A stretch of DNA of 64,000 nucleotides from a virus, in the IMG/VR virus record IMGVR_UViG_3300045988_108820, positions 32,529-96,528 of that record. One strand, given 5' to 3'. Position 1 is the first letter of the stretch, and every line of letters starts with the position of its first letter. Made by a program: the position numbers and the translations under genes. The notes below the pieces were generated by a model, which saw only the letters and a program-made list of their open reading frames with translations, was not told the DNA's origin and ran no database searches. This document shows, piece by piece, positions 3,351 to 61,300 of this stretch.

Positions 3351-3460
3351 TGTTTATTTTGTTTATTTTGTATTATATACTTTATAAATATTACATAAGC
3401 TAACCATAATACTGCTATTTCTATTAATCCTAATATAGATTTTTGAAGTAAATAAATCAT
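3347..3460 (-). CDS. small single-pass membrane peptide (37 aa)
   Basis: Not in the ORF track (below the length cut-off). Sequence MIYLLQKSILGLIEIAVLWLAYVIFIKYIIQNKQNKQ. Its stop overlaps the lipoprotein start as ATGA, suggesting translational coupling. Confidence 0.35.
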   Translation of the reverse strand: MIYLLQKSILGLIEIAVLWLAYVIFIKYIIQNKQNKQ

Positions 3461-3544
3461 AATTTTAATTTTTTAAATCAGTAGAAATAGTTATATATTA
3501 TTATTTTTACAAAGTTCTTGCAAAGGAAAAAGATAGATTGGAAT

Positions 3545-3589
3545 GGGAAAGATGATAGTTTATAAAATTTGCTTGACTATCATCTTCCC
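3545..3589 (-). terminator. hairpin downstream of 3601..3912 gene
   Basis: GGGAAAGATGATAGT (3545-3559) pairs with ACTATCATCTTCCC (3576-3589) with one bulge, 12 nt after the stop. No clear T-run, so the call is tentative. Confidence 0.4.
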
Positions 3590-3600
3590 AATATCAAATC

Positions 3601-3912
3601 TTAGAGACCAAGGTCTACATCTTCCCAAGAGCTATTACCTGGTTTGCAAAGCTTGAAGGTTCCTGACTCAAGCTCAACAACTTGCAAGCTGTCTTTCTGA
3701 GTAGCAATTTGCTGAGGTGTAAGCTCTCCAAGGTTAGAGCTGAAAGCTACAAGAGTAGTAACACCTTCAGAATTAACAAAGGCACAAGACTTGAAAGGTT
3801 CACCAGTTTCCCTGTTTACAAAAGGAGCAACCTTCATCTTACCATGTGCTCTTGCAAAAGAAATCAAAGACCAAGAATTCTTAATACCTACATTCTGTGC
3901 TGTATTAGCCAT
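3601..3912 (-). CDS. early-cassette protein, paralogue A (103 aa), unknown function
   Basis: Identical to the 4760..5071 product at 76 of 103 positions (hand alignment). G+C is visibly higher than in surrounding genes. It has its own upstream conserved element and a downstream hairpin. Confidence 0.7.
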   Translation of the reverse strand: MANTAQNVGIKNSWSLISFARAHGKMKVAPFVNRETGEPFKSCAFVNSEGVTTLVAFSSNLGELTPQQIATQKDSLQVVELESGTFKLCKPGNSSWEDVDLGL

Positions 3913-4022
3913 AATAAACTATCCATTTCAGGACTACTGCATAAATTAAAGTATTATGCTACCTAGCTGCATTACTAAATTAGATCATCAGAGACAGCTA
4001 ACTTCTGATTAATCTTTTTCTA

Positions 4023-4055
4023 TCAAAATATAGGTGGAGTTCTGTTTAGATTAGA
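4023..4055 (-). promoter_or_regulatory. conserved early-cassette upstream element, copy 1
   Basis: The minus strand reads TCTAATCTAAACAGAACTCCACCTATATTTTGA, ending 110 nt upstream of the ATG at 3912. It aligns with copies at 4688-4719 and 5166-5199. Confidence 0.5.
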
Positions 4056-4332
4056 ACTTAACACAATATAAACTTATCACACTAAGCTATTGTTATGATT
4101 AGATTAGTTTAGTGTTAAATTACTAACACTATTAATATGGCATAACTTTTCTATTCTATGCAATAGTTTACATGATTTAAACCTAACAATATTGCTCTAA
4201 GAAAGAAAAGAACCAAAAGAAAGAAACTATTATTTATTATTAATTTATATATTCCTAAAAGAAAGAAATATATAAAGAAAGAAAAGGGTTTAAAAATAGT
4301 GTAAAGTTTGCACTCTACACTATTTGTATTTA

Positions 4333-4632
4333 TCACTCACCTTTCAAGGTTGCAATGAGTTCATTCCTTACATAGTTTGGCATCATTATGCAAGGGAAAC
4401 TATCATTAAAGCTCATAGGACTCTCTACAACATGGAGGTCAAAGAAGCCCCTAGCACTAGAAGAAATAGATATAGGAGTATTATCTCTTATAATTCCAAA
4501 TTCTTCATAAGTAAGGTCTGTCTTAGTTATTTCAAGAACATCACCTTGAAACATAATAGTATCAAAAAGATAATTTACAAGTTCATTACATACAAACTCT
4601 ATAAGTTCATCACAGCTGTTCAAGACTCTCAT
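4333..4632 (-). CDS. small acidic protein (99 aa), unknown function
   Basis: The ORF-track start at 4653 is GTG and the first ATG is at 4632 (MRVLNSCDELIEF...). Hand count gives 16 D/E against 6 K/R. It is preceded by conserved element copy 2. The plus-strand ORF 4324..4644 is its antisense shadow. Confidence 0.5.
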   Translation of the reverse strand: MRVLNSCDELIEFVCNELVNYLFDTIMFQGDVLEITKTDLTYEEFGIIRDNTPISISSSARGFFDLHVVESPMSFNDSFPCIMMPNYVRNELIATLKGE

Positions 4633-4687
4633 AGTAAAGTATAGTTTCCACACTAGAGCAAACTAAAAAAGCTTTAAGTTATTTATA

Positions 4688-4719
4688 TCAAATTATAGGT
4701 GGAGTGTTGTTTGATTAGA
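4688..4719 (-). promoter_or_regulatory. conserved early-cassette upstream element, copy 2
   Basis: The minus strand reads TCTAATCAAACAACACTCCACCTATAATTTGA, about 55 nt upstream of the ATG at 4632 and directly after the hairpin plus T-run that ends the 4760..5071 unit. Confidence 0.5.
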
Positions 4720-4721
4720 TA

Positions 4722-4748
4722 AATAAAAAGAGAGGAGCTAAGCTCCCC
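4722..4748 (-). terminator. short hairpin plus T-run after 4760..5071 gene
   Basis: The minus strand shows GGAGC-TTA-GCTCC followed by TCTCTTTTTATTT. The stem is only 5 bp. Confidence 0.4.
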
Positions 4749-4759
4749 TCCCATCACTC

Positions 4760-5071
4760 TCAGAGTCCAAGGTCTACATCCTCCCAAGTGTCATGACCTG
4801 CCTTGCACAACTTGAAGTGTCCATTCTCCAGCTCAACCACTTGAAGTTCATCCTTCTGTGCTGCAATCTCTGCTGGAGTTAACTCACCAAGATTGCTACT
4901 AAAGGCTACCAAAGTTGTTACTTCATCAGAGTCAATGAATACACAACTCTTGAAATGCTCTCTGGTTTGCTTGTTGATGAATGGAGCTACTTTCATTCTG
5001 CCGTGAGTTTTAGCAAATGAGATTAATGACCGTGAGTTCTTGATACCTACTTCTGTTGCTGTTGTTGCCAT
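4760..5071 (-). CDS. early-cassette protein, paralogue B (103 aa), unknown function
   Basis: Paralogue of 3601..3912 (76 of 103 identical). A rough hand count over about 190 nt gives about 44% G+C against about 30% for typical neighbouring genes. Confidence 0.7.
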   Translation of the reverse strand: MATTATEVGIKNSRSLISFAKTHGRMKVAPFINKQTREHFKSCVFIDSDEVTTLVAFSSNLGELTPAEIAAQKDELQVVELENGHFKLCKAGHDTWEDVDLGL

Positions 5072-5165
5072 AATTATACATTTTAAGGGTTAATAATCAA
5101 AAGTATGTAAGAGTCATGCTAAGATTAGATACCTCAGCAAAGACCCCAGGGGATTATCCCCATTT

Positions 5166-5199
5166 CCAAAAGCTGGGTGGGGTGCTGTTGTAGATTATA
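5166..5199 (-). promoter_or_regulatory. conserved early-cassette upstream element, copy 3
   Basis: The minus strand reads TATAATCTACAACAGCACCCCACCCAGCTTTTGG, preceded by GTGTGG (an extended -10-like TGGTATAAT), ending 94 nt upstream of the ATG at 5071. Confidence 0.5.
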
Positions 5200-5250
5200 C
5201 CACACTCCTACACATCAAATAAAAAAAAATAAAAAAAATTTCAAAAAAAA

Positions 5251-5282
5251 TTTGGTAATTACAAAAATTATCTATAACTTTG
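5251..5282 (+). promoter_or_regulatory. Bacteroidota-type promoter (TTTG-N20-TAACTTTG) heading the rightward block
   Basis: TTTG at 5251-5254 and TAACTTTG at 5275-5282. It sits next to the poly(A) tracts and upstream of the plus-strand tRNA array. Confidence 0.55.
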
Positions 5283-5421
5283 CATAGTTAATTAATAATA
5301 ATAGTCCCAACTATTAATAGTAATAACACTTAATGGGGCTTTAACCTTTCTGAGAGGTTGATGTTGTTTGTTGTTTGTGTTAATTAAACCTCCTTAATCT
5401 GGGAAGATGGAAGAGGTACAT

Positions 5422-5493
5422 GGAGCCATCATCTAATGGTTAGGATACAAGATTTTCAACCTTGAAATAGGGGTTCAATTCCCCTTGGCTCTT
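5422..5493 (+). tRNA. tRNA-Glu(TTC)
   Basis: Cloverleaf: acceptor GGAGCCA/TGGCTCT (G1-U72), anticodon stem CAAGA/CCTTG (31-39 A-C mismatch), loop TTTTCAA, 4-nt variable loop, T arm AGGGG-TTCAATT-CCCCT. Confidence 0.8.
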
Positions 5494-5497
5494 CAAT

Positions 5498-5571
5498 AGA
5501 CTATGAAGTGTAATGGTTTTGCATACCACACTGTCAATGTGGTGGATGGGGTTCAATTCCCCCATAGTCTG
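5498..5571 (+). tRNA. tRNA-Asp(GTC)
   Basis: Anticodon stem CCACA/TGTGG, loop CTGTCAA, T loop TTCAATT between G and C runs, acceptor AGACTAT/ATAGTCT. The D-arm register is ambiguous by 1 nt, so the ends are accurate to about 1 nt. Confidence 0.75.
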
Positions 5572-5573
5572 CT

Positions 5574-5768
5574 ATGATAAAAATATTAAGAAAGGAGGGT
5601 TGGATATTAAACCCTAATGATAAAATAGTAAATGCTATTTTAAAAAGAGTAGAATTAAATAATGGAGAGTGTCCTTGTCAAAATGATAGTAGTGATAAGC
5701 ATTGTCCATGTACAGATTATAGAGATAAAAACTTATGTCATTGTAATCTCTATATCAAGTCAGAGTAA
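5574..5768 (+). CDS. ferredoxin-thioredoxin reductase catalytic-subunit-like Cys-rich protein (64 aa)
   Basis: It carries CPC-x8-CPC-x8-CHC (ECPCQNDSSDKHCPCTDYRDKNLCHCNLYI). This aligns with the CPC...CPC...CHC(M)L(F/Y) signature of FTR catalytic chains. The N-terminal LNPNDKIV..ILKRV also resembles the FTR lead-in. Confidence 0.55.
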   Translation: MIKILRKEGWILNPNDKIVNAILKRVELNNGECPCQNDSSDKHCPCTDYRDKNLCHCNLYIKSE

Positions 5769-5790
5769 TATCTACTCTAGAACTAACTAA

Positions 5791-5863
5791 GGGGTGAGTG
5801 ATGTAATTGGTAACATACTTCCTTTGCAAGGAAGAATTAAGGGTTCAAATCCCTCTTGCTCCA
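5791..5863 (+). tRNA. tRNA-Ala(TGC)
   Basis: Acceptor GGGGTGA/TTGCTCC with the G3-U70 alanine identity pair. Anticodon stem CTTCC/GGAAG, loop TTTGCAA, T arm AAGGG-TTCAAAT-CCCTC. The D-arm register is ambiguous by 1 nt. Confidence 0.8.
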
Positions 5864-6025
5864 CAATATTAACTATAATTTATTAATATGAAAAAGATTT
5901 TATCTTTATTTAAAAGGGGACTTAATGCCTATTTAAATGCATTAGCTAAATGTCCTTATGTACCGTCAGGAACTATCCCAATGGGAGTTTAGTTCCTTTA
6001 ATTTAGAATTAATACTATAATATAT

Positions 6026-6098
6026 TGGCATATAGTATAAAGGTTTATTACGATTGACTGTTAATCAATGAATCAAGGTTCGAGTCCTTGTATGCCAG
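6026..6098 (+). tRNA. tRNA-Asn(GTT)
   Basis: Cloverleaf: acceptor TGGCATA/TATGCCA, anticodon stem ATTGA/TCAAT, loop CTGTTAA, T arm CAAGG-TTCGAGT-CCTTG. Length 73 nt. Confidence 0.88.
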
Positions 6099-6119
6099 CA
6101 TAGAAAAATAATATATAAT

Positions 6120-6350
6120 ATGTGGTTATTGGAAAGTAATAGATCTAAACACCTACTTTATGCAATACCTTCAGCCTATATAGGTACTATATTATTTAGT
6201 ACTGGTTTAGCTTTTGGTATGGAGTTTAAAGATAAACAATATGGTGGTAAATTTGATTGGCTTGATATAGCTGCTACTATGATAGGTGGTATAGTTGGTC
6301 AATTATTGCAGGTTAGTATGATAAGTTTAATCTATTTAACATTTAATTAA
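6120..6350 (+). CDS. small membrane protein (76 aa)
   Basis: Two hydrophobic segments (AYIGTILFSTGLAFG and IAATMIGGIVGQLL). It is embedded in the tRNA array. A weak VanZ-like pattern is not verifiable by eye. Confidence 0.5.
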   Translation: MWLLESNRSKHLLYAIPSAYIGTILFSTGLAFGMEFKDKQYGGKFDWLDIAATMIGGIVGQLLQVSMISLIYLTFN

Positions 6351-6451
6351 TATGGAAGCACTTAATGTTATAATTGGTATTGTAGGTAATGCAATAGTAC
6401 TAGGTCTTATGTATTATTTTCTGGTAAAAAAGAAAGAATAATACTTAGGAT

Positions 6452-6537
6452 GCCTCCATGTTGGAATTAGTAGACAAGTTAGACTTAAAATCTAATAATC
6501 AGTAATGATTATGTGGGTGCAAGTCCCACTGGAGGTA
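6452..6537 (+). tRNA. tRNA-Leu(TAA), second copy, type II, atypical T-loop
   Basis: Acceptor GCCTCCA/TGGAGGT (G1-U72), anticodon stem TTAGA/TCTAA, loop CTTAAAA, long variable arm. T arm GTGGG-TGCAAGT-CCCAC has G at the usual U55 position. Confidence 0.7.
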
Positions 6538-6604
6538 CTATAGCAGCTCTTGAAGGGTGTAGAAAAGCATAGACTTACTAGACTATTTAGACAATCTGCT
6601 ATAA
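6538..6604 (+). pseudogene. possible truncated tRNA-Leu remnant / hairpin spacer
   Basis: TATAGCAG (6540-6547) pairs with CTGCTATA (6596-6603). The interior shares GTAGA..GC.TAGACTTA with the D and anticodon arms of both flanking Leu tRNAs but has no T arm. Confidence 0.25.
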
Positions 6605-6687
6605 ACCCACTTGCTGGAATTGGTAGACAGGCTAGACTTAGGATCTAGTATCTAAATGATGTAAGAGTTCAAGTCTCTTAGTGGGTA
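6605..6687 (+). tRNA. tRNA-Leu(TAG), type II
   Basis: Acceptor ACCCACT/AGTGGGT, anticodon stem CTAGA/TCTAG, loop CTTAGGA, long variable arm, T arm AAGAG-TTCAAGT-CTCTT. Confidence 0.88.
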
Positions 6688-6719
6688 CTAAAAATAATTA
6701 TAAAAAACTTATAAAAAAG

Positions 6720-6750
6720 TTTGTAATTTCAAATAAATTACTTATCTTTG
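6720..6750 (+). promoter_or_regulatory. Bacteroidota-type promoter (TTTG-N19-TATCTTTG)
   Basis: TTTG at 6720-6723 and TATCTTTG at 6743-6750, 14 nt upstream of tRNA-Thr. Confidence 0.55.
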
Positions 6751-6764
6751 TAATTGTTGAAGAT

Positions 6765-6836
6765 GGTCTCTTAGTATAAAGGTTAATATCCTTGCTTTGT
6801 AACCAAGGGATGTAAGTTCGATTCTTACAGGGACCT
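6765..6836 (+). tRNA. tRNA-Thr(TGT)
   Basis: Acceptor GGTCTCT/AGGGACC (one U-G), anticodon stem CTTGC/CCAAG (31-39 C-C), loop TTTGTAA, T arm GTAAG-TTCGATT-CTTAC. Length 72 nt. Confidence 0.82.
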
Positions 6837-6842
6837 CAATAT

Positions 6843-6915
6843 ACAGGGATGTTAGCAGTGGTAGCTAGTTAGCCTCATAAGCTAAAGGTCGTGGGTTCGA
6901 CTCCCACTCCCTGAA
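6843..6915 (+). tRNA. tRNA-Met(CAT) (elongator, initiator or Ile2 identity unresolved)
   Basis: D arm TAGC-AGTGGTA-GCTA, anticodon stem TTAGC/GCTAA, loop CTCATAA, T arm GTGGG-TTCGACT-CCCAC. The acceptor register is ambiguous, giving either an A1-A72 mismatch or a 4-bp T stem. Ends are accurate to about 1 nt. Confidence 0.75.
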
Positions 6916-6987
6916 CAAATTAAAATTAATAAATATATCTTCTTTGAAGAATACTTTATCTAGTGTATCATATATAAAAATAACACT

Positions 6988-9241: not shown

Positions 9242-9504
9242 TGAATATAATAAATAGTATAAATAATGTATTAACAAAGGGAGAATTATTATTACATATA
9301 GAACCAACTTCCACAGCTATAAAATCTGTGTTGAAAATTAACTATAAATTGTACATTCTAACTAAAGATAATGAATCTCCAAAAGAGATTCTTTTCTTCT
9401 CTAGTACTCTAACACCTGGGAATGTAATAAGTGATTTAGATGAATGGGCTACTCAAGAGATACTTAAATTTGTTATACATGGAGGGTTAAGAGATTATGA
9501 ATAA
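9238..9504 (+). CDS. hypothetical protein (88 aa)
   Basis: ORF-track frame. It overlaps the upstream stop by 4 nt and the terminase start by 8 nt. Confidence 0.5.
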   Translation: MMNIINSINNVLTKGELLLHIEPTSTAIKSVLKINYKLYILTKDNESPKEILFFSSTLTPGNVISDLDEWATQEILKFVIHGGLRDYE

Positions 9505-12500
9505 ATACCAAACAGAGTATTCTAAAGAATATATAGAGTCATTACCTAAAGAAGTTCAAGAACAATACTATGACTTTATAACTAGTGTACCTTATATATC
9601 AAAGCTACTTTCTGATAATAGAAAGTATGCTAAAGATTTACCTAGAGATAATGAGGGAAAGATAATAATAGATGTTACAGAACCACATATTTTAGAAAAT
9701 ACAGATTACTTTAGACCTAGTGCTATTCATTATCAACAATATGGTTGTTACACTAAATTAAAACCTAATGCTAATCCTAATAGTGAATATGGTAAATGGA
9801 TTAGAGAAGAGGTTAGAAGGTGTTGGGAAGGTTATATTAGACCAGAAGATGGAGAATGGATAACAGGGGATATGTATTTCTTTCTTAACTATTGTCCTAT
9901 ACAATTAATTAAAAAAGATAGTAATGGTAAGTCTATTAGAACTATTGACTTTCCTAAATTTTGGGATGGACATTATTATAAATTTCATTATTTAAATCAA
10001 TGTAGAAATGAAGGACATCATGCCGCAGAATTAGCTAGTAGAGGTAAGGGAAAAGCACACCCTTATAGCCAAAAAATATTAACTCCTTTTGGATGGAAAT
10101 ACTGGGGAGACATACAAATTGGTGACTATATTTATGGAGATAATGGAGAATTAACAAAAGTAGTAGATATTCCTTATGATGAAGTGTCTGATATATACAC
10201 TGTTACTTTATTAGATGGTAGAAAAGTACAATGTACAAATGGGCATTTATTTAAAGTAAAGAATCATAAAACAAAAAGAATAGAAATAAAACCTCTAATT
10301 GAAATTATTAAAGATTACAAGAGTACTAGAAAAGTATCTAATAAAACCCCAAATGGTATAGAATATAATTATAGAATACCAAAAATTACTAATGCTGTTT
10401 ACTTCCCTTCAAAGAGAGTACCAATAGACCCTTATACTTTAGGTTTGTTACTAGGTGATGGGTGCTTTAGAGTAATCTCAGCAAAGAACTATGTACTATT
10501 TACTTGTGATAAAGAAGATTATTACACTTATGAAGAAAACATACCTTACAAGATAGATAAAGTAACAAATAATAATTATACTCATGCTATAAGATTTTCT
10601 GTAGAACCTTTAATTAATTATAAATTATATGGATTAAAATCAGAGCATAAATTTATACCTAGAGACTACCTAGTAAATGATAGAAATGTGAGATTAGAAA
10701 TACTTAGAGGACTTATGGATTCAGATGGAACAGTGGATAAAACTTCTGGTATTCCTGTCTTTAGTACTACATCTGAGAAATTAAAGGAGGATTTTATATT
10801 CTTATGTAGGTCTCTAGGATATAATGTATCTTGTTCTTTACATGATTCAAAATTTAATAATATAACATATAAAAGTCATTATAGAATTAGAGTTATAACA
10901 AATGACCCTATCTTTAAATTAGGAAGGAAATTAAAGTTACTTAATAATTTTACTTCTAGCTATGCTAAAAGTAAGAGAGATTATACTACAATTATAGATA
11001 TTCAATACTCACATAAAGAACAAGCAAAGTGTATAACAGTTAATAACGAGTCACATTGTTATATAATAGGAGATTTTGTAGTAACTCATAATTCATATAG
11101 TGCAGCATCAATGTTAGCTAAAAGATTTATACTAGGAGAATCTAATGATGTAAAGAAGAAAGTACAATGTGTTGCTACAGCTAGTGAGAGAAAATATATT
11201 CAAGGAGCTAACCAACTACTTGATATGTTTCAATACTACATTGATTTCTGTGCTAACAATACAGAGTTTCCTAGACAAAGAATCACTTCCTCTTTACAGA
11301 ATTTAGCATGGACTATGGGCTATGTAGACTCTGAAACTAATACTAGGAGGGGAACTGAAAATAGTGTTATAGGTATTACTTCTAAGGATGATGAATCTAA
11401 GCTTAGAGGTTCTAGAGGTGTATTGTATCTTCTAGAAGAAGCAGGTTCATTTCCTAGACTATTAAATTTGTATCAAGTGCTAAGACCATCTGTAGAAGAT
11501 GGTAATAGTGTTTGGGGATTAATTTATTTATATGGTACAGCTGGTGATAGTGATTCTGACTTTAGTTCTATGCAAGAATTAATGTATAACCCTAAAGGTT
11601 ATAATATTAAAGCAATAAATAATGTTTATGATAAAGAGGGTCAAGGAAGAAAGCAGTTTACATACTTTTTTCCTGGTTATATGAATAGAGCTGATTGTTA
11701 TGATAAAGATGGAAATAGTGATGTCAATAAAGCCCTTATTGAAATACTTTTAGATAGGTATAAAGTAAAGTATAATAGTACTGATATTAATGCAATTACT
11801 AAGAGAATTGCAGAAATTCCTATAACTCCACAAGAAGCTATATTAAAGACTAAAGATAATATATTCCCTATCACAGAGTTAACTAAGAGACTTAATGAAA
11901 TTGATAATAATCCTAATTTCTTTGATGATATTTATGTTGGAGATTTAGCTTTTAATAAACAAGGTAAAGTAGAGTTTAATGCTACAACTACAGACACTCC
12001 TATAAGAGACTTTCCTACTAAAGATAATAAAGTACAAGGAGCAATAGAAATATATGAAATGCCCCAAGAGATACATGGTAAAGTTCCTAATGAAAGATAT
12101 ATTTTATCACTAGATAACTATGAAAATGATCAAGCCCAATCAATGTCATTGGGTAGTGTATTTGTGCTAGATCTATGGACTGATAGAATTGTAGCAGAAT
12201 ATACAGGAAGACCTATGTTTGTTGATGATTTAAATGAAATATGTAGAAAGTTATGTTTATTTTATAATGGTAAAGTGATGGTAGAAAATAATAAGAAAAA
12301 TACCTTTGCCTACTTTAGTAAAATGAATAGTTTACATCTAATGGCTGATACTCCAGAATATCTTAAGAATAAACAAATATTAAAAGTCAACACATTTGGT
12401 AATGCAAGTAAGGGATGTCCTGCTACAGTACCTGTGATTAATTTTTCTATGGAAAGATTAAGAGATTGGCTACTAAAACCTGTAACTGTAACAGAAGAAT

Positions 12501-12748
12501 CTAATGGGGAATCAATATCTACTACAATCCCCAATCTACACTTTCTAAAGAATAGAGCTTTAATTAAAGAATTAATGCTTTATAATCCTGCTATTAATGT
12601 AGATAGAATTATGTCTATGTGTCAACTCATGTTATATAGAGAAGAAAAGATGATTCTTTATCAAGGAGAACCTAGAAGAGCAGAGAAAAGAATTGATTCT
12701 ACTTATCTAGGAAATGATCCATTCTTTAATAAAAACTATAAACAGTAA
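9497..12748 (+). CDS. terL: terminase large subunit, interrupted by an intein (1083 aa precursor)
   Basis: Removing residues 187-532 joins ...ELASRGKGK to SYSAASMLAKRF..., restoring a GKGKS Walker A P-loop. A Walker-B-like VLYLLEEAG lies downstream, and the gene sits immediately upstream of the portal-sized ORF. Confidence 0.8.
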   Translation: MNKYQTEYSKEYIESLPKEVQEQYYDFITSVPYISKLLSDNRKYAKDLPRDNEGKIIIDVTEPHILENTDYFRPSAIHYQQYGCYTKLKPNANPNSEYGKWIREEVRRCWEGYIRPEDGEWITGDMYFFLNYCPIQLIKKDSNGKSIRTIDFPKFWDGHYYKFHYLNQCRNEGHHAAELASRGKGKAHPYSQKILTPFGWKYWGDIQIGDYIYGDNGELTKVVDIPYDEVSDIYTVTLLDGRKVQCTNGHLFKVKNHKTKRIEIKPLIEIIKDYKSTRKVSNKTPNGIEYNYRIPKITNAVYFPSKRVPIDPYTLGLLLGDGCFRVISAKNYVLFTCDKEDYYTYEENIPYKIDKVTNNNYTHAIRFSVEPLINYKLYGLKSEHKFIPRDYLVNDRNVRLEILRGLMDSDGTVDKTSGIPVFSTTSEKLKEDFIFLCRSLGYNVSCSLHDSKFNNITYKSHYRIRVITNDPIFKLGRKLKLLNNFTSSYAKSKRDYTTIIDIQYSHKEQAKCITVNNESHCYIIGDFVVTHNSYSAASMLAKRFILGESNDVKKKVQCVATASERKYIQGANQLLDMFQYYIDFCANNTEFPRQRITSSLQNLAWTMGYVDSETNTRRGTENSVIGITSKDDESKLRGSRGVLYLLEEAGSFPRLLNLYQVLRPSVEDGNSVWGLIYLYGTAGDSDSDFSSMQELMYNPKGYNIKAINNVYDKEGQGRKQFTYFFPGYMNRADCYDKDGNSDVNKALIEILLDRYKVKYNSTDINAITKRIAEIPITPQEAILKTKDNIFPITELTKRLNEIDNNPNFFDDIYVGDLAFNKQGKVEFNATTTDTPIRDFPTKDNKVQGAIEIYEMPQEIHGKVPNERYILSLDNYENDQAQSMSLGSVFVLDLWTDRIVAEYTGRPMFVDDLNEICRKLCLFYNGKVMVENNKKNTFAYFSKMNSLHLMADTPEYLKNKQILKVNTFGNASKGCPATVPVINFSMERLRDWLLKPVTVTEESNGESISTTIPNLHFLKNRALIKELMLYNPAINVDRIMSMCQLMLYREEKMILYQGEPRRAEKRIDSTYLGNDPFFNKNYKQ
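10055..11092 (+). mobile_element. intein (346 aa) with double-motif LAGLIDADG homing endonuclease
   Basis: Block A-like AHPYSQKILTPFGWKYWGDIQIGDYIYG, block B TNGH, LAGLIDADG motifs LGLLLGDGCF and LRGLMDSDGTV. Block F is AKCITVNNESHCY and block G is FVVTHN followed by Ser +1. Confidence 0.8.
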
Positions 12749-52375: not shown

Positions 52376-55300
52376 TTAGCAAAGTTTTTTATATTCTTCT
52401 TCTATAGTTTTTTCATCAAATTTAATTCCAAGAACTTCAAGTCTAGATTTCATGAACTTCTTAACTTGTGATTCAATAGCCTTCTTAAACTCATTGTCCA
52501 TATTTTTATAATTTTGGATAGTACTTTCTGCATCTGCAAGTGTTTTACCCTTCGTCATATATATTTGGTGTAATAAGTCTATTTGCTCTTGTTCACTATT
52601 AGTAGATTCATCTAACTTAGTTTCTCTATCCACATCTGGATTATTAATCTCTGATTTTGTATTATCTTCCAAGGATACTGAAGGAATCTCAAGAGGTTTC
52701 TCAATTCCATCAATGCTAATCTCTAGATAGTCTTTGTTACTTCCAAGAGGATTAATTTCTTTGTACTCAATAGATTCATCTTTTGATAGAACTTGCTGAT
52801 ATAATTTATCAACATTATCTACTCTCATTTTAAAATATTGAGTTTTCTGAAGATCTTTAACATCACTCTCTTTATATACTTCAAAGTTACCATTCTCAAG
52901 CTTTCTCATAACAAGATTTTTCTTTCTAGGAACAAGCTTGTTATTGTCCCAGTTATTTCTAATAAACTGGTCAAGGACTATCTCAGGTGTGCTACTTGGG
53001 AGTACTCTAAATGTATCAACATAACTACTAAGTCTCTCTTTCACATATACAGGAACTAAACTCATAAAGGTTTTAGGAGAAAATCCTATTCCAGCTCTAA
53101 AGAAACAGTACTTAAAGAGTTTTTCAGATAATTCTGGATTCACTCTATGAAGGTCAATCCAAGCACTACTTAGTCTTTCTTTTTGTAGAATATCAAGACC
53201 AGTAATATCAACCTGAAGAGTGGCTCTACCTCCTTTATCAGTTCCATATTTTATAGACTGAATGAGAAGATTATTTTTATACTGTTCTTTGTAGTTTTTC
53301 TCCATAAACTCCTTAGGGAACTCTGATATAGTTTTACCTAAATCATTTGATTTTACTACATTACCTGCTACAACAAGATAGGACTGATAGAAGTCACTTA
53401 AACTACTAAGAATTTTTCTATCACCGAGAATAACATCACCTATTGGATTTTCACTAGCATAAGTGAGGATATTTCTAAATCCTGTACTATTAGCTGGCAT
53501 ACTACTAAATAAGCCTTGTGCTATTCCTAATGTTTTTCTAAATTGATTTAGAATAGGATGTGCAAGGAAGATATCATTAATACTAATTTCCTCTCCATCT
53601 GAGCCAAGAATATTACTCTCAGAAGAAAGCTTTTCCATTTTATGCTCGGTGATTAAATTATCAATAATCAATGGACCCACTGCACTACTTATTGAGTTAA
53701 ATCTAGTAGCAAATGTAGGCATCCTCATAGCGTCAGCAAGTCTTTGAAAGTTTCTAAATGACTTAAGAACTTTGTATTCAATTCTTGAATCCCTTGATTT
53801 TACACCTTTAATTAATTGCTCTCTAGTAAGTTCTTCTTCATTAAGTAAACTATTCTCATCAATATTTAGATCTTTCTCTATTTTCTTTATCCTATTTTCA
53901 ACTACTTTACTTAAAGAAGTAAATCCTGTGATATTTTCACTACTAAATTGATTAAGAACATCTGATATAACTCTTTGAGATAAGAAGAGAGCAGCATCAT
54001 CAAAAGGCATTCCAAGTCTTACAAGAGTATTAAGAATATTAGCTGTATTACTATTAATATTCATCAAGTTAAGTACAGGATCTTTAACAGCATCAGCTGC
54101 ACTAGCAACTAAACTACCAAGTACTTTACCAACTGATTGTCCACTATTATCAAGTCTAACATCAATAGGCATATTACCTCCAAAAGTCATATCTGCTACA
54201 GTAAATGGTCTAGTAAGGTTACATGCATTATCTACATTCATCATATATCCTTCATTCTCTATTACTGCATGAGCAGTTCTATTAACTGCAAAGATACCAA
54301 TAAGAGAACCAGCAGCACTATTTTGTTTGTAGAATTGTATATGAGTATCAATAAACATAAGATTCTTATCTTTACTACTTAAATCCTTGAGTTCATCAAT
54401 AGACATCTTACTTAATTCATCATAGCTTTTGTCAGTAGTTCTAAGAGCAGTTACAAGATAACCCATTCTCTTTTGTGGGTCAAAGCCACCTGGATTTAGC
54501 ATTTCTGCACAACTAGTTTCATGTGTTAATACCTCATAAGTCATATCAACAATCTTATTATTTCTATAAGTTCTTCCTTCTGTAGGTTTATTAACAGTAA
54601 AAGCATTTTGTAAATATAACTTAAGTAACTTACTATAAGAATTACTAGGAATTGACATGAATCCTTCAGCTGTCTTTTGATTAACTAGAGAGGCTCTATC
54701 AAATGGGTCTTCAAGAAATTGTCTAACCAAATCATTAAGTTTGCTTTTAACATTATAACTTAGTTTCCCTTTTTGAGACTCAACTAGAGAATCATATAAT
54801 ATTTTATGAAGAGCAGATTTAGTAATTTTATTTTTAGAAATACTGTAATCTTTTCTCATAAGATACTCCTTATCAACATCAAAGTCTGAACCTGTGAGTA
54901 GTGTAATATCACTAGGTAACATAATACCATCACCAGCTTCTCTAGGTAAGAAACCCACAATCTTCAAAGGAGCCATACTATATTTAGCTTCAGTAGGAAT
55001 TCTATAGCCAATCATCTTTAATAAATCAGGGTCAAGAGCTTCCAATGCTTCTATGCTAATGTTACCATTCTTATCAGCGAATTGACTGAATAGATTGTTA
55101 GCATATATAGGAGCAAATACCTCAAAGTAAGCAATACCTCCTTGATTTTCTTTTATATAATCTTTATAGGACATTGTACCTTCAGAAACCTTTAATCCTT
55201 TGTATTTAGCATTAAATTTATCAGTTTGAGAAAGTTCTTTCTTTATAGGATTTTTTTCATATTCTGCTCTTGTTTTTAATAAACCTCCATTCTTGTCTTT

Positions 55301-58300
55301 AAATCTAATATTAAGTTCTCTAGAAGTACCAAAGTTAGTAACCTGTACAACAGGACCACCAGCTATTTCTTGTTTATTAACTCTATTCTTTATAACAGAG
55401 TTGACTAATTGTTCAACTCTTTTACTCTGAATAGGATCTCCAAGAGGTATTCTAAATCTACCATTTTCATCAACCGAACAAGCTTGTAAGAGATCTATAC
55501 CATATCTAGGACTGGATAATATTTCTCTTTGTAATATCTTACTAAGAGCTATATTTCTATCTTTTGTATTAGTACTTTGAAGACCTAGAGCACTCTCTAA
55601 ACCACTTATACTATCTTCAATATTATCTGCAATAGTTTGTTCATACTCAGACTTAAATTCATCAGCAGATATTTTTTTACCTTCAACTTCATAGGTTGCA
55701 TCATTTCCAAAGCTATCTTTTGTAGCAAGTTCTGATACTACAATATATCTCAATTGGGAGCCATGAACTTGCTCATGATTCTTAAAGTGCTCAGGCACTT
55801 CTTGTTGTAAACAATAGTCTTCAAAAGGTAGCTCTTGAACATAAGTTTGATTATATTTACCTGTTTTGGTATCTATAGTCACATCCTCAAGTTTTCCAGT
55901 CTCTTGGTTAGTTCTTTGGATTGTTTTAGGAGCTGTCTCATATATACAAGCCTCCATAACAGCTTTGGCTTTAGCTTCTCCATTGACATCATTAATATAT
56001 TTATTAAGATTAATTCTGCCCATTAAGCCAGACTTTACAGTTGACTCAAACTGAACAGTATCAATACCATCTGTCTTATAGTTACCATCTTCATCATAGT
56101 GACTTTCTTCCATTACTTCATAGATTGCTCTAAGTAGGTTTGGTCTACCAGTGTTCTCATTTTGAAGAATAGCATCAGCCATTATAAGAAGATATTCAGA
56201 GTTTTTATTCTGTACAGGTATTTTAAGCTTATCAAGGGGAGCATTAGGTACACCAGAAGACTTTTCTATTTGACTATAAACAAAGGGCTTTAGTGGTTGA
56301 AACGCTACACTTAGATCACTATAATTGTAATCTCCCTTTCTAAGTTTTTGATATATTTCTTCTGCCTTTTTACTCCATTTACCAAAAATAAATGCTTTCT
56401 TTCTATATGATGTTGGAGAAGAATATCCTTGAGCATCTGCTACATTTATTTTTCTAAATGCACCATCTTTACCTACAAGAGAGTCTTTTAATACTCTATA
56501 ACCATCTTTTTCAGCTTCTGGAGCTTCAGCTATCTTTCTATCAAAAACAATTGATACATTGTCAATGATATTAGATACAAAGTCATCCCAGTCTTTAAGA
56601 TAGAAGGTTCTTTCCTTTCCATCAGAGACTTTACTACCTTCATAGTCTGTAGCATCTACATTACCTCTTATACCTGGAGCATGGATTTGTGCTAATCTCT
56701 TTTGTAAATCTTCTGCATCCTTATAATAGGCAATATCAGTTACAGTTAATTCCATTATGTTCATAGCTGCAAAAGTATCATTCCAAACAAAGTTTTCAAG
56801 ATTAGATTTAATCTCTTCCTCTGTAGTACCAATACCTGAGATTTTCTTAGCTCCTTCCATAAGACCAGAGTTAATCCAATTCTCTACAATGGATTTAGCT
56901 CTAGTGTCTAAAGTATCAAAGATAGCTTTATTAGCAAGTTCATATAACTTAGCTTCATCTACTTCTTTACCATTGATTTTATTGTTTATAAGTTTACCTA
57001 ATTCACTATTCTTTTTATCTCCAGTAAGATAATCATTCATAAAGTCAAGGAAGCAGAACTTTTTACCATTTTTATCAAAATTCTTTATGAATCTTGGACC
57101 TTTACTATCGAGGTTTCTCATCAGTACGGTTTGGATTCTACTTAACTCTTGATTAAATATGTCCATCATACCATCTGTAATAGTTTCTCTATAGTTAATA
57201 CCTCTTTCACTATAAAACCTTATGAATTCAGAAGATGGCTTATTAGATAACATAGGCACCCTAAACCAAGCAGGTACTCTTGATTGTTTATCATTTGCAC
57301 CTTCTGAAAAATACTCTGTAAGTAATGAGAGTGCATACTCCATATCACTCATATTCTTCATATAATTGTGCTTATTGAAACTGAGTTGTACTTTATGTTT
57401 AAAAACACTTCTAGCTTTACTATCAGTAGCTAAAGTTCTAAGCCAACTGTTTCTCCAACCTCTTTCAATATCTGTGCCTTCATGAAACCATGGTTGGTTT
57501 GCATACTCCTCGGTCAGAAAGTCATCAAAAGCCTGTCCCTCTTGACTAAATTTTTGCATTAACTTAGACATATAAGAAGGAGTTACATAACTTTGATACA
57601 TTTTACCATTATCATAAAAGGCAGAAATTGCAATATCTTCTAAGTGTTCTGTGATAGGCTTTAAGAACTCTCTCATATTACCATTGATACTATCTTTAGC
57701 CTTAAACTTGAAAGGTTCATAAGAAGCATTATCAAGATTATTTTCAAAAGATCTTATCATGTATCCTAAAGCACTATACATCTTTTTAAAAGTTTCACTC
57801 GTAAGATTACTCTTTACCATATCAGGAGTTACATAATAACCAAATAAGCTTGAAATATAATCTAAAGTATTAGCAACTTCATCTTTATCAACTTCTTTAG
57901 ATAAATCATATCCTGTATGCCTAAACTTTTCAAGACTGTCATAAGCAGATTTAAGTTCTCCAAATGATTTTTTATTTATACCCTCAGTAGTAAATAATGG
58001 ATGTTCTCCTATTTTATACTGAGTTGTGACTTGCGTCATGGCTTCACTAAGAGCAGGATTTTCATTTACTGAAATACTTTTATATTTTCCATCTTCTTCA
58101 ATTACTGTTGAATATGATTGAAATGGCTTAAAGAATGTTCCGTAGAATTGACTCTGAAAATCAGTCTCTTTACCAGAAGTATCAGATAATCTATCAATAA
58201 GTTGTTTAACCCAAGGATTATCTTTCTGCTTTCCTTGTAATTTAGTTATTGCACTAGCCAAACTTAATGAGCCTTGTGTCCATCTAAGTATAGAATTAGT

Positions 58301-61300
58301 TGCTTCTCTTACATTTATTCTTTCATTGATACCAAACTCTGATTGTACATTGTTCCCATCTTTATCAAGAATATAACATTTAAGTAAGGCTTTCCTAACC
58401 AATTGAGACATAGTTTCAAGTATATCTTGACATCTAGATTCTAATTGCCAATGCTCTTGAAGATTACCTTCAATTTCTTCCACACTTGCCTGGTCATTAG
58501 ATTCATTAAAGTTATCTGCATCACCCACAAGATCTTCATTGACTTCATTAACTTTCCCATCAGGTGTGGATACTATACTAAAATCTTCAAAGTTTAAGAA
58601 TGAACTTTGTGCAAGTAACATTACAGCTTGCCAATTATCAGTAATAGCAGTAGCTTTATCTATTGTATCAAAGTTGTCAAAGTCATTATGTTCAGGAGAA
58701 AACTTCTGTCTGCACATTTCAATTATATTGTCAACTCCAATAGTTCTAACTACATCTGCTCTAGTCATAGAGGCAAAATCTTTGTCAGTACCATCCTTAT
58801 TTTTAAACCTATCACCATAGATAGTTTTAGCTGCCTCTGGATTTTCTTGCAATTCAGTAATATGGTCTGAAATCCAATATACAGCTTGTTCAGCTATATG
58901 TCTTACTTCTGTTGCAGAAAGGAGACTATCTCCTAAAAGGTTGTCTATTTGTTGCATCTTATCTTGTTGTTTTAATGTATATAAATCTTGTTCTTTTTCT
59001 TTTCTATCTATCTGTGAAGTTTCTTCTTGAGTACCATCTTCAGTATTAGCTACTTGAACATTAGTAGTAGTTTGTAGATTATTATCCTGAGACTCTTGCT
59101 TATTTAATCTAATACCTTTCTCTAGTTCTATTCTATGAATAGCATCTAAAGTAGCTCTCTTCTCTACTTCTATTTTGTTAGGTGAAAGCCAATCTATTGC
59201 ATAAGGAACTAAACTACCATAAGTATCTCTTATATCTCCTTCATAATAGTCTTTACCACTATCCTCCCAATACTTATGACTTAATTCATGATATGTTACT
59301 AAATTTTTAGCATCTTCATCAGTTTGAATTATTTCTCTTAGTCTTTCTTCTGTATATCCTTCCTTTGCTAATTCTTTAAAGACTACCCTTTTTTGTTCTG
59401 ATGTGCTACTAGGGACTTCACCTTTAATATATTTAAAAACATCTTCTTTACTAAGATTCCTAGCAACTACTATATTACCACTCCTAGTAAATCCAAGTTT
59501 TCCATTTAATATTTTCTCATCAGTAGTTTCATTTATAGGAGCTTGAAATTTAGAGTACTCTTCAAAAGTTCCATCACTCTTAAGATAATCACTACTACCT
59601 TTGGAGTAATCATAAATACCCCCTCTTAAGTTTTTATTAGCAGAATTAAAATACTCTTGTGAAATAGAAATAATTTCCTCTAAAGCTGAATCTTTTATAT
59701 CTATTCCTTGAGATTTAAACATTTTATTAAATAAATTAGTAAGATAATTTATAAATCTCTTAAAAGCATTTTCTTTCTTACCTAACTTTATTTTACTTAA
59801 TTCTACTTGAAAGGCTCTATCTGTTAAAGCTACAGCTACAAATTCTTTAGCATTAGTTAATCCATACCACTCAGTTCCCTTTAATTGTTCTTCACATTGT
59901 AGATATAGATTCCATACATTATTAGAAAATTCTGTTTGTACTTTATTAAAGTTCTTTATTTTAGACCAAGAAGGGTGATAATTTAAAATCTCAGCAGTAA
60001 CAGCATGAATTAATTCGTGAGTTAATACCTTCATAATACCTCCCTTTACATTAGCTTTATCATCTGTCATTAGATAATCTAATAATAAAGCAGGATTAAT
60101 TCTTATTGTAGCTGTTCTAAAATTATCTTGTTTTCTACTAGCTATACCATCTAAATTAGAGTCTATAAGTATATTTATAGGAATATTATTATTTCTTAAT
60201 ATCTCAACTACTTGTTTAAATAATTGGTGATATGGATTAGTAGGTTTTACTTTACTTAAAAACTCATCAATTAAAGAGTTATTTAGAGTAATACCTTCCT
60301 GCTTTAATATAGCTATAGCTCTCTCTCCCTCTATAGCATTCTCAATAGAGTCCCCTGATATATAGTCTTCCCTATTAAGCAATTCTAACTCCTTATTAAT
60401 TTCTTCTTGTCTTGAGAAAGCTTGCTTTTTATGCCATTTATCTATTAAATTATCAGCTAACTTAGGGTTTTTTAATTCTGATAAAACATTATCTAGTTCT
60501 TTTAAATTGTGAATTATATTACCCTTATCATCAACTTTTATTCTAGTATTATAGCTTTTATTAAATCCAGCTGCCTTTCTTCTTAATGCTCCTACTTTTC
60601 TTTCTAATGGAAGATTTTTAAAGTCTTCTTTAGCTATATCCATTAGACTTAGAACATTACTAAGATTTTCTCTCTCTTTCTCTATAGACTTTATTCTATC
60701 ATCTATTTTACTCTGTAATTGTGTCTTAGATTCTCCCTTATAAGAAATTCCAAGAGCTGATTTTTCTTCATTATAATAATCTATTCTATCATCAGTTCTG
60801 GAGAAGGTTCCTATATTACTCTCAGCTGATTTAATTTGATTTGGGGTTGGAACAACTATTTCTTCATATCTCCCCTCAGCACCTGAATATAACACACCAT
60901 CATATTCTTCCGTATTACCTATTCCCCTATTAAAGTTTTCAGCTAATTCCACATTTTTAATAGCTTCTTTCATACTTATATTAGGATCTGTCCCTGCTCT
61001 TAATGGTTTTTTTATATTTACAAATAATTTCATTATATTACCATATTGAGCAGCTTTATTCTCTACGGAAGATAAATATAATCCTTTACCATAGTATCCA
61101 TCATCTGTGTTTTTACCAAACATTTTAGTATCTAGTATATTCCACTTACTATTGGTACCATGATAAACAACTAAAGGTTCACCATTTTCATCTACTACTT
61201 TAGAAGCATTCTCTGGGTCATTTTCCCAATCACCAAACCAACCTTTAAATTCTTTAGTTCTAACCTGAGCATATTGTCTTTCATCAAGATTAGACTTTTT

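Follow-up and report, generated by a model that had tools for sequence, protein, structure and literature searches.

We found that four minus-strand copies of a ~33-base motif head the first small genes within the window (the whole 64-kb stretch of DNA that was analyzed), which belongs to a Steigviridae/Asinivirinae crassvirus ~81% identical to cr116_1. We propose, with a probability of roughly one half, that this element is a lineage-specific phage promoter of ~33 bp for autonomous early cassettes and that it is most likely read by the virion RNA polymerase (RNAP). The element would drive each first transcription unit at the head of the leftward, presumably early, module; each unit would be laid out as promoter, short gene or genes, and hairpin terminator, with two tandem promoters in the first. 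Crassvirales, the most abundant human gut phages, all inject an RNAP that is giant and highly divergent, and in the literature on crass phages we found no published early-promoter consensus or start-site map. Should the virion RNAP read the element, crass-type virion RNAPs would gain their first promoter consensus, from one lineage only. Even if the host polymerase reads it, the element would define a separate temporal class. The motif is confined to the first units of a single lineage, with diverged forms that can be followed in related genera, and could serve as a defined template in transcription assays in vitro and in the mapping of 5' ends.

Element copies and cassettes

The consensus of the four copies is T(C/A)TAATC-N8-10-ACYC-N9-TTTG(A/G). 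The copies and the features around them are listed in the leftward direction.

5251 to 5282, plus strand: canonical host-type promoter, TTTG-N20-TAACTTTG, facing the tRNA and the late module
5166 to 5199, minus strand: copy 3 (distal, first of the leftward module), TATAATCTACAACAGCACCCCACCCAGCTTTTGG, profile E 3.2e-7
5149 to 5161, minus strand: hairpin GGGGATAATCCCC, after the distal copy only (alignment and fold)
5097 to 5129, minus strand: copy 4 (proximal), TCTAATCTTAGCATGACTCTTACATACTTTTGA, profile E 3.2e-6
4760 to 5071, minus strand: F0a, 103-aa protein, paralogue of 3601 to 3912
4721 to 4752, minus strand: intrinsic terminator, 11-bp stem and T-run, -21 kcal/mol, z -3.88, abutting copy 2
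4688 to 4719, minus strand: copy 2, TCTAATCAAACAACACTCCACCTATAATTTGA, profile E 2.9e-6, with a gene unrelated to F0 downstream
4333 to 4632, minus strand: F2, 99-aa protein
4294 to 4325, minus strand: terminator hairpin after F2, 14-bp stem and T-run, -16.3 kcal/mol, z -7.33
4023 to 4055, minus strand: copy 1, TCTAATCTAAACAGAACTCCACCTATATTTTGA, profile E 2.6e-9
3913 to 4022, minus strand: F0b leader, 110 nt, with a decayed remnant of a proximal copy (ATCTAAT...CTTTAA)
3601 to 3912, minus strand: F0b, 103-aa protein, paralogue of F0a
3544 to 3590, minus strand: long hairpin at the end of the third cassette, without a clean T-run, -21.3 kcal/mol, z -5.07

A preliminary description had listed three of these copies; their minus-strand coordinates and sequences were confirmed when the window was re-read, and so was the distance of 55-110 nt to the reading frames (110, 55, and 94 nt to the ATGs for copies 1, 2, and 3). 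The count itself was too low, as copy 4 at 5129-5097, which sits between copy 3 and the ATG at 5071, had been overlooked. Hairpins had likewise been credited to the ends of two of the three units, and we found strong ones at all three (z -3.9, -7.3, and -5.1), the first two followed by T-runs. Every copy is oriented towards a gene downstream and either follows a terminator directly or stands where the leftward module begins: copy 2 begins a few nucleotides after a terminator T-run (hairpin 4752-4728, element from 4719), and the distal copy is, by alignment, the first conserved block past a divergent poly-T region. The plus-strand promoter at 5251-5282 marks the divergent control region and provides a contrast class for the element.

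When 41 unique instances were compared, the register of the core was fixed and the spacing from TAATC to the core was variable. The element may be described as a TAATC box on the upstream side, followed by a spacer whose length differs by 0-2 nt and then by a core of fixed register, ACYCCACC-YATAT-TTTG(A/G), in which the 3' TTTG is invariant. The hairpin at 5149-5161 belongs to a ~60-nt block conserved across Asinivirinae genera, with equivalents in crAss001, IAS virus, and a broad clade; its stems are invariant, so covariation is uninformative either way. An outer stem around this G/C hairpin was considered for the window's own clade and dropped, being inconsistent between genomes in the alignment.

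Pfam and PHROG searches of the F0 and F2 proteins returned no match. The 103-aa protein has 1607 homologues in metagenomes, none of them named, a protein identical to F0b occurs on 17 public contigs, and the AlphaFold model of the 103-aa protein (pLDDT 42) was unusable for function. Homology of the 103-aa family to crAss001 Gp1 was not established at 20% identity in the alignment.

Restriction to the cassette heads

Using an nhmmer profile built from the relatives' copies only, we recovered exactly four sites in the window (E 2.6e-9 to 3.2e-6), and the next-best window match had an E of 6.6, a gap of six orders of magnitude. The consensus pattern likewise had 4 matches in the window against 0.01 expected. 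Over the 22-nt core, the four copies have a mean identity of 66%, compared with 28-33% in the 30-nt flanks and a random expectation of 29%, and similarity between paralogous copies ends at the element borders; copies 1 and 3 are not fully independent, since they stand before paralogous genes (3912 and 5071) that share 74% identity. When an equivalent profile was run over the complete cr116_1 genome (101,082 bp), it hit four equivalent sites, which share a strand and lie within 2.2 kb. The idea of a distinct class confined to these cassettes, put forward in the preliminary description, holds in profile searches of the 64-kb window and of the complete cr116_1 genome. In the 10 kb further downstream in the same phage, the profile search gave no further same-strand match, and the sole other match below E = 1 (E 0.067) lay on the opposite strand.

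Two pattern searches of viral contigs were set aside: the degenerate pattern ACANNACNCCACCNANNNTTTG returned ~120 single chance matches and was uninformative, and the exact pattern ACTCCACCTATANTTTGA returned just two already known contigs and chance matches.

Presumed early module and transcription start

The organization of the window matches that of crAss001, and the leftward module is syntenic with the early module that RNA-seq has defined there, the corresponding leftward genes being of the 0-10 min class (PMC8375218). By this synteny, early timing of the window cassettes is plausible. In phi14:2, the only crass-type case studied, early genes are transcribed by a rifampicin-resistant virion RNAP, early transcripts have no common upstream motif, and the RNAP uses single-stranded templates only in vitro, with no activity on double-stranded DNA (bioRxiv 10.1101/2020.03.07.982082). 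A virion RNAP (a 3115-aa DFDVD protein) is encoded in the window with a host-type promoter in front, and this protein, injected together with its 1281-aa and 2572-aa partners, is the polymerase that would most likely act on the element. The early module also encodes a Myb-like DNA-binding protein, and the late module two predicted regulators.

The position of the transcription start can be approached through relatives. In L001, L130, L244, and L249, the F3 gene, which encodes a membrane protein, has its ATG 3 nt past TTTG, and in homologous elements of the wider clade the leader stems start at the TGG/GG of YTTGG, with compensatory changes (A:U to U:A and G:C to A:U) and G.U variants. Because of this start-codon position and the leader-stem covariation, the start is indirectly placed at or upstream of the terminal G, and no more finely; the covariation is limited to one or two positions per stem, and the start-codon argument rests on one inherited arrangement. 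Transcription from the proposed promoter would most likely begin at or within ~3 nt of the terminal G and would give purine-rich 5' ends. In IAS virus, only 17 nt separate the F3 homologue from the terminator before it, too short a gap to hold the element, so expression of F3 by read-through is possible.

The element and host-type promoters

The Bacteroidetes sigma-A promoter consists of a -33 TTTG and, 19-21 nt downstream of it, a -7 TAnnTTTG (T-12, A-11, T-8, T-7, T-6, and G-5), with the G at -5 and the start 4-5 nt downstream (PMC6847099). The pattern (T/C)TTG-N18-21-TAnnTTTG matched none of the four element copies and found 13 other sites in the window. The -33 TTTG is absent from all four copies, a perfect TAnnTTTG is present in copy 4 only (TACTTTTG at 5105-5098), and the -7 region reads TA-N3-TTTG in copies 1 and 2 and CAGCTTTTG in copy 3. 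The spacer of the element is C-rich, whereas host promoters, both here and in the literature, are AT-rich (PMC6847099). The earlier view that the element does not fit the host-type promoter is thus borne out by the pattern search and by the published -33/-7 definition (PMC6847099), from which the copies depart.

Element profiles found nothing significant in the complete crAss001 genome, and CCACC-type k-mers were not enriched in it. The host-type pattern is ~4-fold enriched alike in crAss001, cr116_1, and the window. From these comparisons the element appears to evolve fast between genera, while the host-type promoters of the same genomes stay canonical. An exact 13-mer is common to the element and crAss001, with ~0.26 expected by chance according to our estimate, and we note it as a lead.

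Because the copies depart from the host -33/-7 arrangement and the element diverges fast while host-type promoters stay canonical, the virion RNAP is the most likely reader, and on these sequence grounds we favor the injected enzyme over the host polymerase with an added factor. The more specific proposal, in which the element is a double-stranded promoter of the injected two-barrel virion RNAP, with transcription beginning at the terminal G and specificity set by the CA-rich block, is one that we advance tentatively and at somewhat less than even odds. Several features count against the favored reading. TTTG matches the stretch of the host -7 box that is conserved best, TAATC lies roughly at -33, and since copy 4 also carries TAnnTTTG, the geometry of the element fits a sigma-dependent promoter as well. 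A variable spacer is typical of sigma-type promoters and not of single-enzyme phage polymerases. Four sites per genome are, in addition, too few for a whole early and middle programme.

These features would be accommodated if the host RNAP read a promoter of unusual design, in which sigma-A takes the TTTG part as a -7-like box and TAATC and CCACC are sites for a regulator. This regulator, from phage or host, might activate or repress, or it might remodel sigma as T4 MotA/AsiA do, and such a factor would give the cassettes their own timing. We consider this account less likely than the favored one, and the likeliest of the alternatives. It draws on the invariant TTTG, which is part of a perfect TAnnTTTG in copy 4 and of TA-N3-TTTG in others, on a TAATC near the -33 position with spacing variable as in sigma promoters, on the spacing variants of the -7 box known from Flavobacterium (motif SM5, PMC9723704), and on the Myb-like protein and the two predicted regulators as available DNA-binding or regulatory proteins. 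It is opposed by the missing -33 TTTG and by the C-rich spacer, unlike that of host promoters (PMC6847099), and a G at -5 would put the start inside or after the F3 start codon. The leader stems of the wider clade begin at the G. Moreover, the element diverges between genera that share the same host-type promoter, and a phage-made factor would come too late for the first-expressed genes unless it were injected.

A leader RNA or a promoter

The four copies of the element had no structure beyond that of shuffles (z -0.98 to +0.90). A search with Rfam 15 at gathering thresholds found tRNAs only, the best matches in 3400-5420 being eukaryotic families far under threshold, and the distance from element to ATG varies from 3 to 110 nt in the window and its relatives. 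These results weigh against the alternative, raised in the preliminary description, of a conserved 5'-leader RNA element, which we regard as improbable. Here the promoter would be T(C/A)TAAT only, or would lie further upstream, and CCACC...TTTGA would work as part of the RNA, for instance by binding a protein or by signalling processing or stability. The F3 leader would then be ~21 nt long, against a modal 23 nt in Bacteroides mRNAs (PMC7366714), and a start inside the element is compatible with the evidence for a start at or upstream of the G. An RNAalifold model in which the C-rich block, where C has changed to T, would still pair as G.U with G-runs further downstream also suits this account, but the GGTGG partner is absent downstream of copies 1, 2, and 4, and the C-rich block has no compensatory change. 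A lone 5-nt TAATC box is, furthermore, too little for a promoter. The deepest conservation in the element lies in its 3' half, which the internal copies of the wider clade keep while TAATC is not conserved in them, and the suggestion that T(C/A)TAAT is a -10 placing CCACC in the transcript found no support.

Self-folding of the element into a hairpin, or a dyad centred on TAATC, was rejected as not general, being present only in the distal copies, and weakly there. The fold of the F0b leader was not significant (z -1.2).

Cassette exchange among relatives

Close relatives are ~80-95% identical throughout. Orthologues of copy 3 are present in cr116_1, L129, L130, L132, L228, L244, L249, and others, and those of copy 4 in L001, L129, L130, L228, L244, and L249. 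Genes of families F0, F2, and F3 lie downstream of the element, and one genome has an empty slot there. Across seven genomes, the slot after the third element holds F2, F3(+F5), F3+F7+F2+F5, or nothing, and L130 has a fusion ORF that spans a cassette junction; the inner cassettes are thus swapped or deleted between relatives. The orientation of the element and its position relative to terminators and genes stay constant among relatives, and a recognizable homologue is kept in lineages whose F0 proteins are just 60-68% identical. In a secondary role, the promoter-terminator junctions may serve as recombination points at which small early genes are swapped, fused, and lost.

A motif with no regulatory role, left behind by cassette duplication or as a recombination or homing scar that persists through phage kinship, would agree with the paralogous genes of two cassettes, the differing gene content between copies, the fused ORF, and the high overall identity of close relatives, but it is highly improbable, given that paralogous copies share the core and have flanks at the random level, that unrelated genes lie downstream of the element, that homologues persist beyond the close relatives, and that orientation and position are constant.

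Comparison with known systems

Read as a promoter of the injected virion RNAP, the element can be set beside several phage systems. The promoters of coliphage N4 are DNA hairpins (5-7 bp stem and 3-nt loop) read by a T7-like single-subunit enzyme. Unlike these, the element has no hairpin of its own, folding no better than shuffles, and one follows the distal copy only. The resemblance to N4 lies in the few clustered sites (three in N4 and four here) at the early-gene end of the genome, and in early promoters that differ from the middle and late ones (PMC4496689). The pre-early promoter of gp96 in P23-45, a phage with a two-barrel virion RNAP, is similarly a strongly conserved motif confined to the first-expressed genes (PMC10770324); relatives share it, and the promoters that act later differ from it. 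Unlike the element, it is AT-rich and was tied to its enzyme by 5'-end mapping and ChIP-seq (PMC10770324). For gp66 of phi14:2 there is no common early motif, unlike here (bioRxiv 10.1101/2020.03.07.982082).

The element resembles the Bacteroidetes sigma-A promoter in its 3' TTTG, in a box placed upstream near the -33 distance, and in spanning ~33 bp overall (PMC6847099, PMC7366714). It differs in the lack of a -33 TTTG, in having TAnnTTTG in one copy of four, and in the C-rich spacer; the F3 cassettes argue indirectly against the sigma-A start-site geometry, and the canonical examples in the window look different. T4 middle promoters (MotA/AsiA) resemble the element in combining a host-type downstream box with a phage-specific box that replaces the -35/-33 (PMC2988021), but their mechanism needs phage factors made earlier, which is a misfit with the first genes of a module.

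In layout the element is also like the PeSL of T4-type phages, where a stem-loop terminator and, directly behind it, a conserved promoter of early type recur between small ORFs of unknown function (PMC2839356, PMC4122927), within a plastic region where insertions, deletions, replacements, and fusions are bounded by the repeats. PeSL carries an early promoter for E. coli sigma-70, to which the motif here is unrelated in sequence, and the motif also falls outside the definition of its own host's promoter; unlike PeSL, it belongs to a crassvirus that injects its own RNAP, and it occurs in four copies per genome in a single region. The relation is one of analogy and not of membership. On this analogy, crassviruses, like T4-like phages, would exchange small early genes where a terminator and a promoter meet.

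A conserved element at the head of the leftward module

One named phage of the reference collection matches window positions 3400-5400, with 81% identity: uncultured phage cr116_1 (Crassvirales, Steigviridae, Asinivirinae, Pamirivirus). The window's phage is also present as a 99,371-bp contig from a Hadza gut metagenome. Two features of the window stand out, the first in a layout that agrees with that of crAss001:

about 5200-5420: divergent poly-T-rich control region, with tRNAs and the late module rightwards and small genes and tRNAs leftwards
52376-61723, minus strand: crass-type virion RNA polymerase (RNAP), a 3115-aa ORF with DFDVD, with a canonical host-type promoter upstream

Synteny with crAss001, whose counterpart leftward genes belong to the class turned on 0-10 min after infection (PMC8375218), suggests that the leftward cassettes of the window are early. 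The cassettes are flanked by fifteen tRNA genes in two opposed arrays (651-2715, minus; 5422-6916, plus), and at least one of these genes has a host-type promoter of canonical form upstream (878-848, minus strand). The leftward module also encodes a 102-aa protein (1896-2204, minus) that matches Myb-like DNA-binding domains (PF00249, PF13921) and, as a candidate early regulator, compares with the transcriptional regulator of the crAss001 early module. In the place that the large terminase has in crAss001 and cr116_1, directly 5' of the portal gene, lies a 1083-aa ORF (9497-12748, plus) with weak Hom_end and LAGLIDADG matches; it exceeds the crAss001 terminase (2289-bp gene) by about 320 aa and may contain an intein or homing-endonuclease insertion.

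The preliminary description reported three minus-strand copies of a ~33-nt element upstream of the cassettes, and all three are present (copies 1 to 3: 4055-4023, 4719-4688 and 5199-5166). The total is four: copy 4, TCTAATCTTAGCATGACTCTTACATACTTTTGA (5129-5097), falls between copy 3 and the ATG of the first gene (5071), which therefore carries a tandem pair of elements. An nhmmer search with a profile of 12 copies from three relatives, window sequence excluded, matched the window at these four copies only (E 2.6e-9, 3.2e-7, 2.9e-6, 3.2e-6; next-best match E = 6.6), and the pattern TAATC-N7-10-ACNCNNNC-N5-TTTG occurs 4 times against 0.01 expected. The 22-nt cores of the copies share 50-86% identity (mean 66%), and the 30-nt flanks on each side fall to the random level (28-33%). 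The element is real, sharply delimited and conserved.

We also scanned related genomes. A profile made without cr116_1 sequences found four sites in its complete 101,082-bp genome, confined, as in the window, to the head of the equivalent module (single strand, 2.2-kb span; next match E = 2.9). A profile search of a further 10 kb downstream in the window's own phage gave no same-strand copy, the sole other match below E = 1 (E 0.067) being on the opposite strand. About ten more genomes, and an intermediate lineage (CTAATCACAACATCACTCCACCCATATTTTGACAGAAAA), came from scans of viral and metagenome collections, which brought the total to 41 unique instances. The consensus drawn from them starts with T(C/A)TAATC, followed by a spacer varying by 0-2 nt and by A.CA..ACYC...C.A...TTTG(A/G)(T/A)A in fixed register, usually with a purine-rich stretch 3' of it. 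In lineages whose 103-aa proteins (family F0, encoded at 3601-3912 and 4760-5071 in the window) are just 60-68% identical, the site 5' of that gene is ACACATCACCACYCCTATATYTTGGAGG and the module's first site is GATAATAC(C/A)ACACACCACCCCCACCATAYYTTGGAWTGGGATATACCCCCTGGGG, so the old core consists of the CA-rich block, TATAT and YTTG(G/A). At the first sites of crAss001 and IAS virus the motif itself is absent, and element profiles gave no significant match to crAss001; the architecture is kept: poly-T comes first, next a CA-rich block containing CCACC and a C-run, and last a G-run/C-run hairpin.

This layout, which is also that of copy 3, precedes the first leftward gene at 100-260 in crAss001 and 1850-2000 in IAS virus (both minus), with long poly-T tracts, and the alternating C-run/G-run/C-run(/G-run) pattern was seen in every genus examined. 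The 13-mer AACTCCACCTATA of copy 1 recurs exactly in crAss001 (about 99,533-99,546, minus strand), within the last codons of the HNH endonuclease gp99 and 5' of a 400-nt non-coding early-module stretch; with an estimated 0.26 chance matches expected, we treat it as a lead only.

Cassette organization

Strong hairpins close all three window units (z -3.9, -7.3, -5.1), one more than previously reported, with T-runs after the first two. Two of the genes (3912 and 5071) are paralogous, with 74% identity, and the third (4632; F2, 99 aa) is unrelated. Across seven mapped genomes the frame is constant (two elements, F0, a variable middle, one element, a second F0), and further genes, F5 and F7, are gained or lost. 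The third element is followed by:

F2: window and one relative (L228)
small membrane protein F3: cr116_1 and two relatives (L130, L244)
nothing: one relative (L171)

One ORF (L130, 5091-5432) joins the first eight F0 codons (MATTATTV) to an F2-type body (..NNCDELKDF..) and appears to be a recombinant across a cassette junction.

Two further features lie among the cassettes. A pyrimidine-rich non-coding stretch (CCCTTTTCTTTCTTTATATATTTCTTTCTTTTAGG ... TTTCTTTCTTTTGGTTCTTTTCTTTCTT; 4200-4290, minus) separates the F2 terminator from copy 1, and cr116_1 and far more distant relatives (L131-L148) have a near-identical TTTCTTTCTTTATATATTTCTTTCTTTT at the corresponding position; in phi14:2, long early-module intergenic regions are among the most highly transcribed. 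A second repeated motif of about 40 nt, CTTAAAGCTYTTTYAGTYTGCTCTAGTRTGGARACTRTA (4640-4680 in the window; about 5990-6030 and 5640-5690 in relative L001; all minus), stops 8-12 nt 5' of the ATG of the unrelated genes F2 and F7 and is retained in the empty L171 cassette. It could be a translation signal, a processing signal or another recombination junction.

A probable promoter and candidate polymerases

We consider the element to be a promoter, with a probability of about 0.75: a phage-specific, presumably early promoter, new in sequence, within promoter-terminator cassettes. The distinct regulatory class proposed for these autonomous cassettes holds, now with four copies and with early timing drawn from synteny.

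In Bacteroidetes, a sigma-A promoter consists of TAnnTTTG, whose G is at -5 with 4-5 nt to the start, together with a weak -33 TTTG, and its spacer is AT-rich (PMC6847099, PMC7366714). The pattern (T/C)TTG-N18-21-TAnnTTTG has 13 matches in the window, many at late-operon heads and upstream of tRNAs and the RNAP gene, and the host-type pattern is about 4-fold enriched in each of crAss001, cr116_1 and the window. As claimed earlier, the element does not fit it: none of the four copies matches, only copy 4 has TAnnTTTG, and all four have a C-rich block in place of the AT-rich spacer of host promoters.

Two clues place the transcript 5' end, with moderate confidence, at or upstream of the G of TTTG/YTTGG. 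First, in four genomes the conserved N-terminal membrane helix of F3 begins at an ATG 3 nt past TTTG, so a start 4-5 nt past the G would cut into that codon; this arrangement was inherited once, and the IAS virus F3 homologue lies 17 nt past a terminator without an element. Second, the leader stem that follows the first site in the wider clade reads TGGAATG/CATTCCA, TGGATTG/CAATCCA or TGGAGTG/CATTCCA (G.U variants and a single A:U to U:A exchange), and at internal sites the first pair falls at the first G of TTGG in 10/10 sequences (RNAalifold), where manual pairing shows a further exchange, G:C to A:U, from a comparison of L136 and L149; this covariation involves few positions.

That the virion RNAP reads the element is a tentative proposal, at slightly less than even odds. 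It is consistent with the sites' position at the head of a module whose crAss001 counterpart is early, with the misfit to the host definition, and with the element's quick divergence between genera, as crass-type virion RNA polymerases likewise change quickly (PMC7886860). Also in its favour, early transcription in phi14:2 is rifampicin-resistant and carried out by the virion enzyme (bioRxiv 10.1101/2020.03.07.982082); against it, that phage is without any common early motif (same source). Host RNAP, with or without a factor, is favoured instead by TTTG being invariant, by the bipartite, sigma-like layout whose spacer varies and by copy 4 having a perfect -7 box; we regard this alternative as rather unlikely.

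A structural or translational leader element, the alternative offered earlier, is unlikely, given that the element alone folds no better than shuffles in 4/4 copies (z -0.98, -0.98, +0.90, -0.34), that Rfam found only tRNAs at its thresholds and no credible match in 3400-5420 at relaxed ones, and that anything between 3 nt (TTTGATATG before F3) and 110 nt separates it from the start codon. The earlier -10 assignment of the T(C/A)TAAT block is likewise unsupported. The leaders 3' of the element are structured (z = -2.49 after copy 3), including one in the wider clade:

L135-L154 (e.g. L150, 5830-6000): conserved, highly structured 5' leader of about 190 nt, from the first element to the next ATG, 5' of an F0 paralogue

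This leader has 11 pairs with compensatory changes and no Rfam match, and may be an uncharacterized cis-regulatory RNA.

Comparison with known systems

In the published literature we found neither a map of transcription starts nor an early-promoter consensus for any crassvirus. The element is chiefly of value as a specific candidate, open to experimental test, for the promoter that the crass-type virion RNA polymerase recognizes. The few conserved sites at the early end resemble the virion-polymerase sites of N4 (PMC4496689) and P23-45 (PMC10770324); unlike in N4, there is no hairpin in the element, and its link to an enzyme is a proposed one. The combination of a terminator with an early promoter, and the cassette shuffling, recall the PeSL terminator-promoter junctions, for which such behaviour is described in T4-type phages (PMC2839356, PMC4122927). 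PeSL promoters, however, are host sigma-70 promoters, and the element is therefore not a PeSL.
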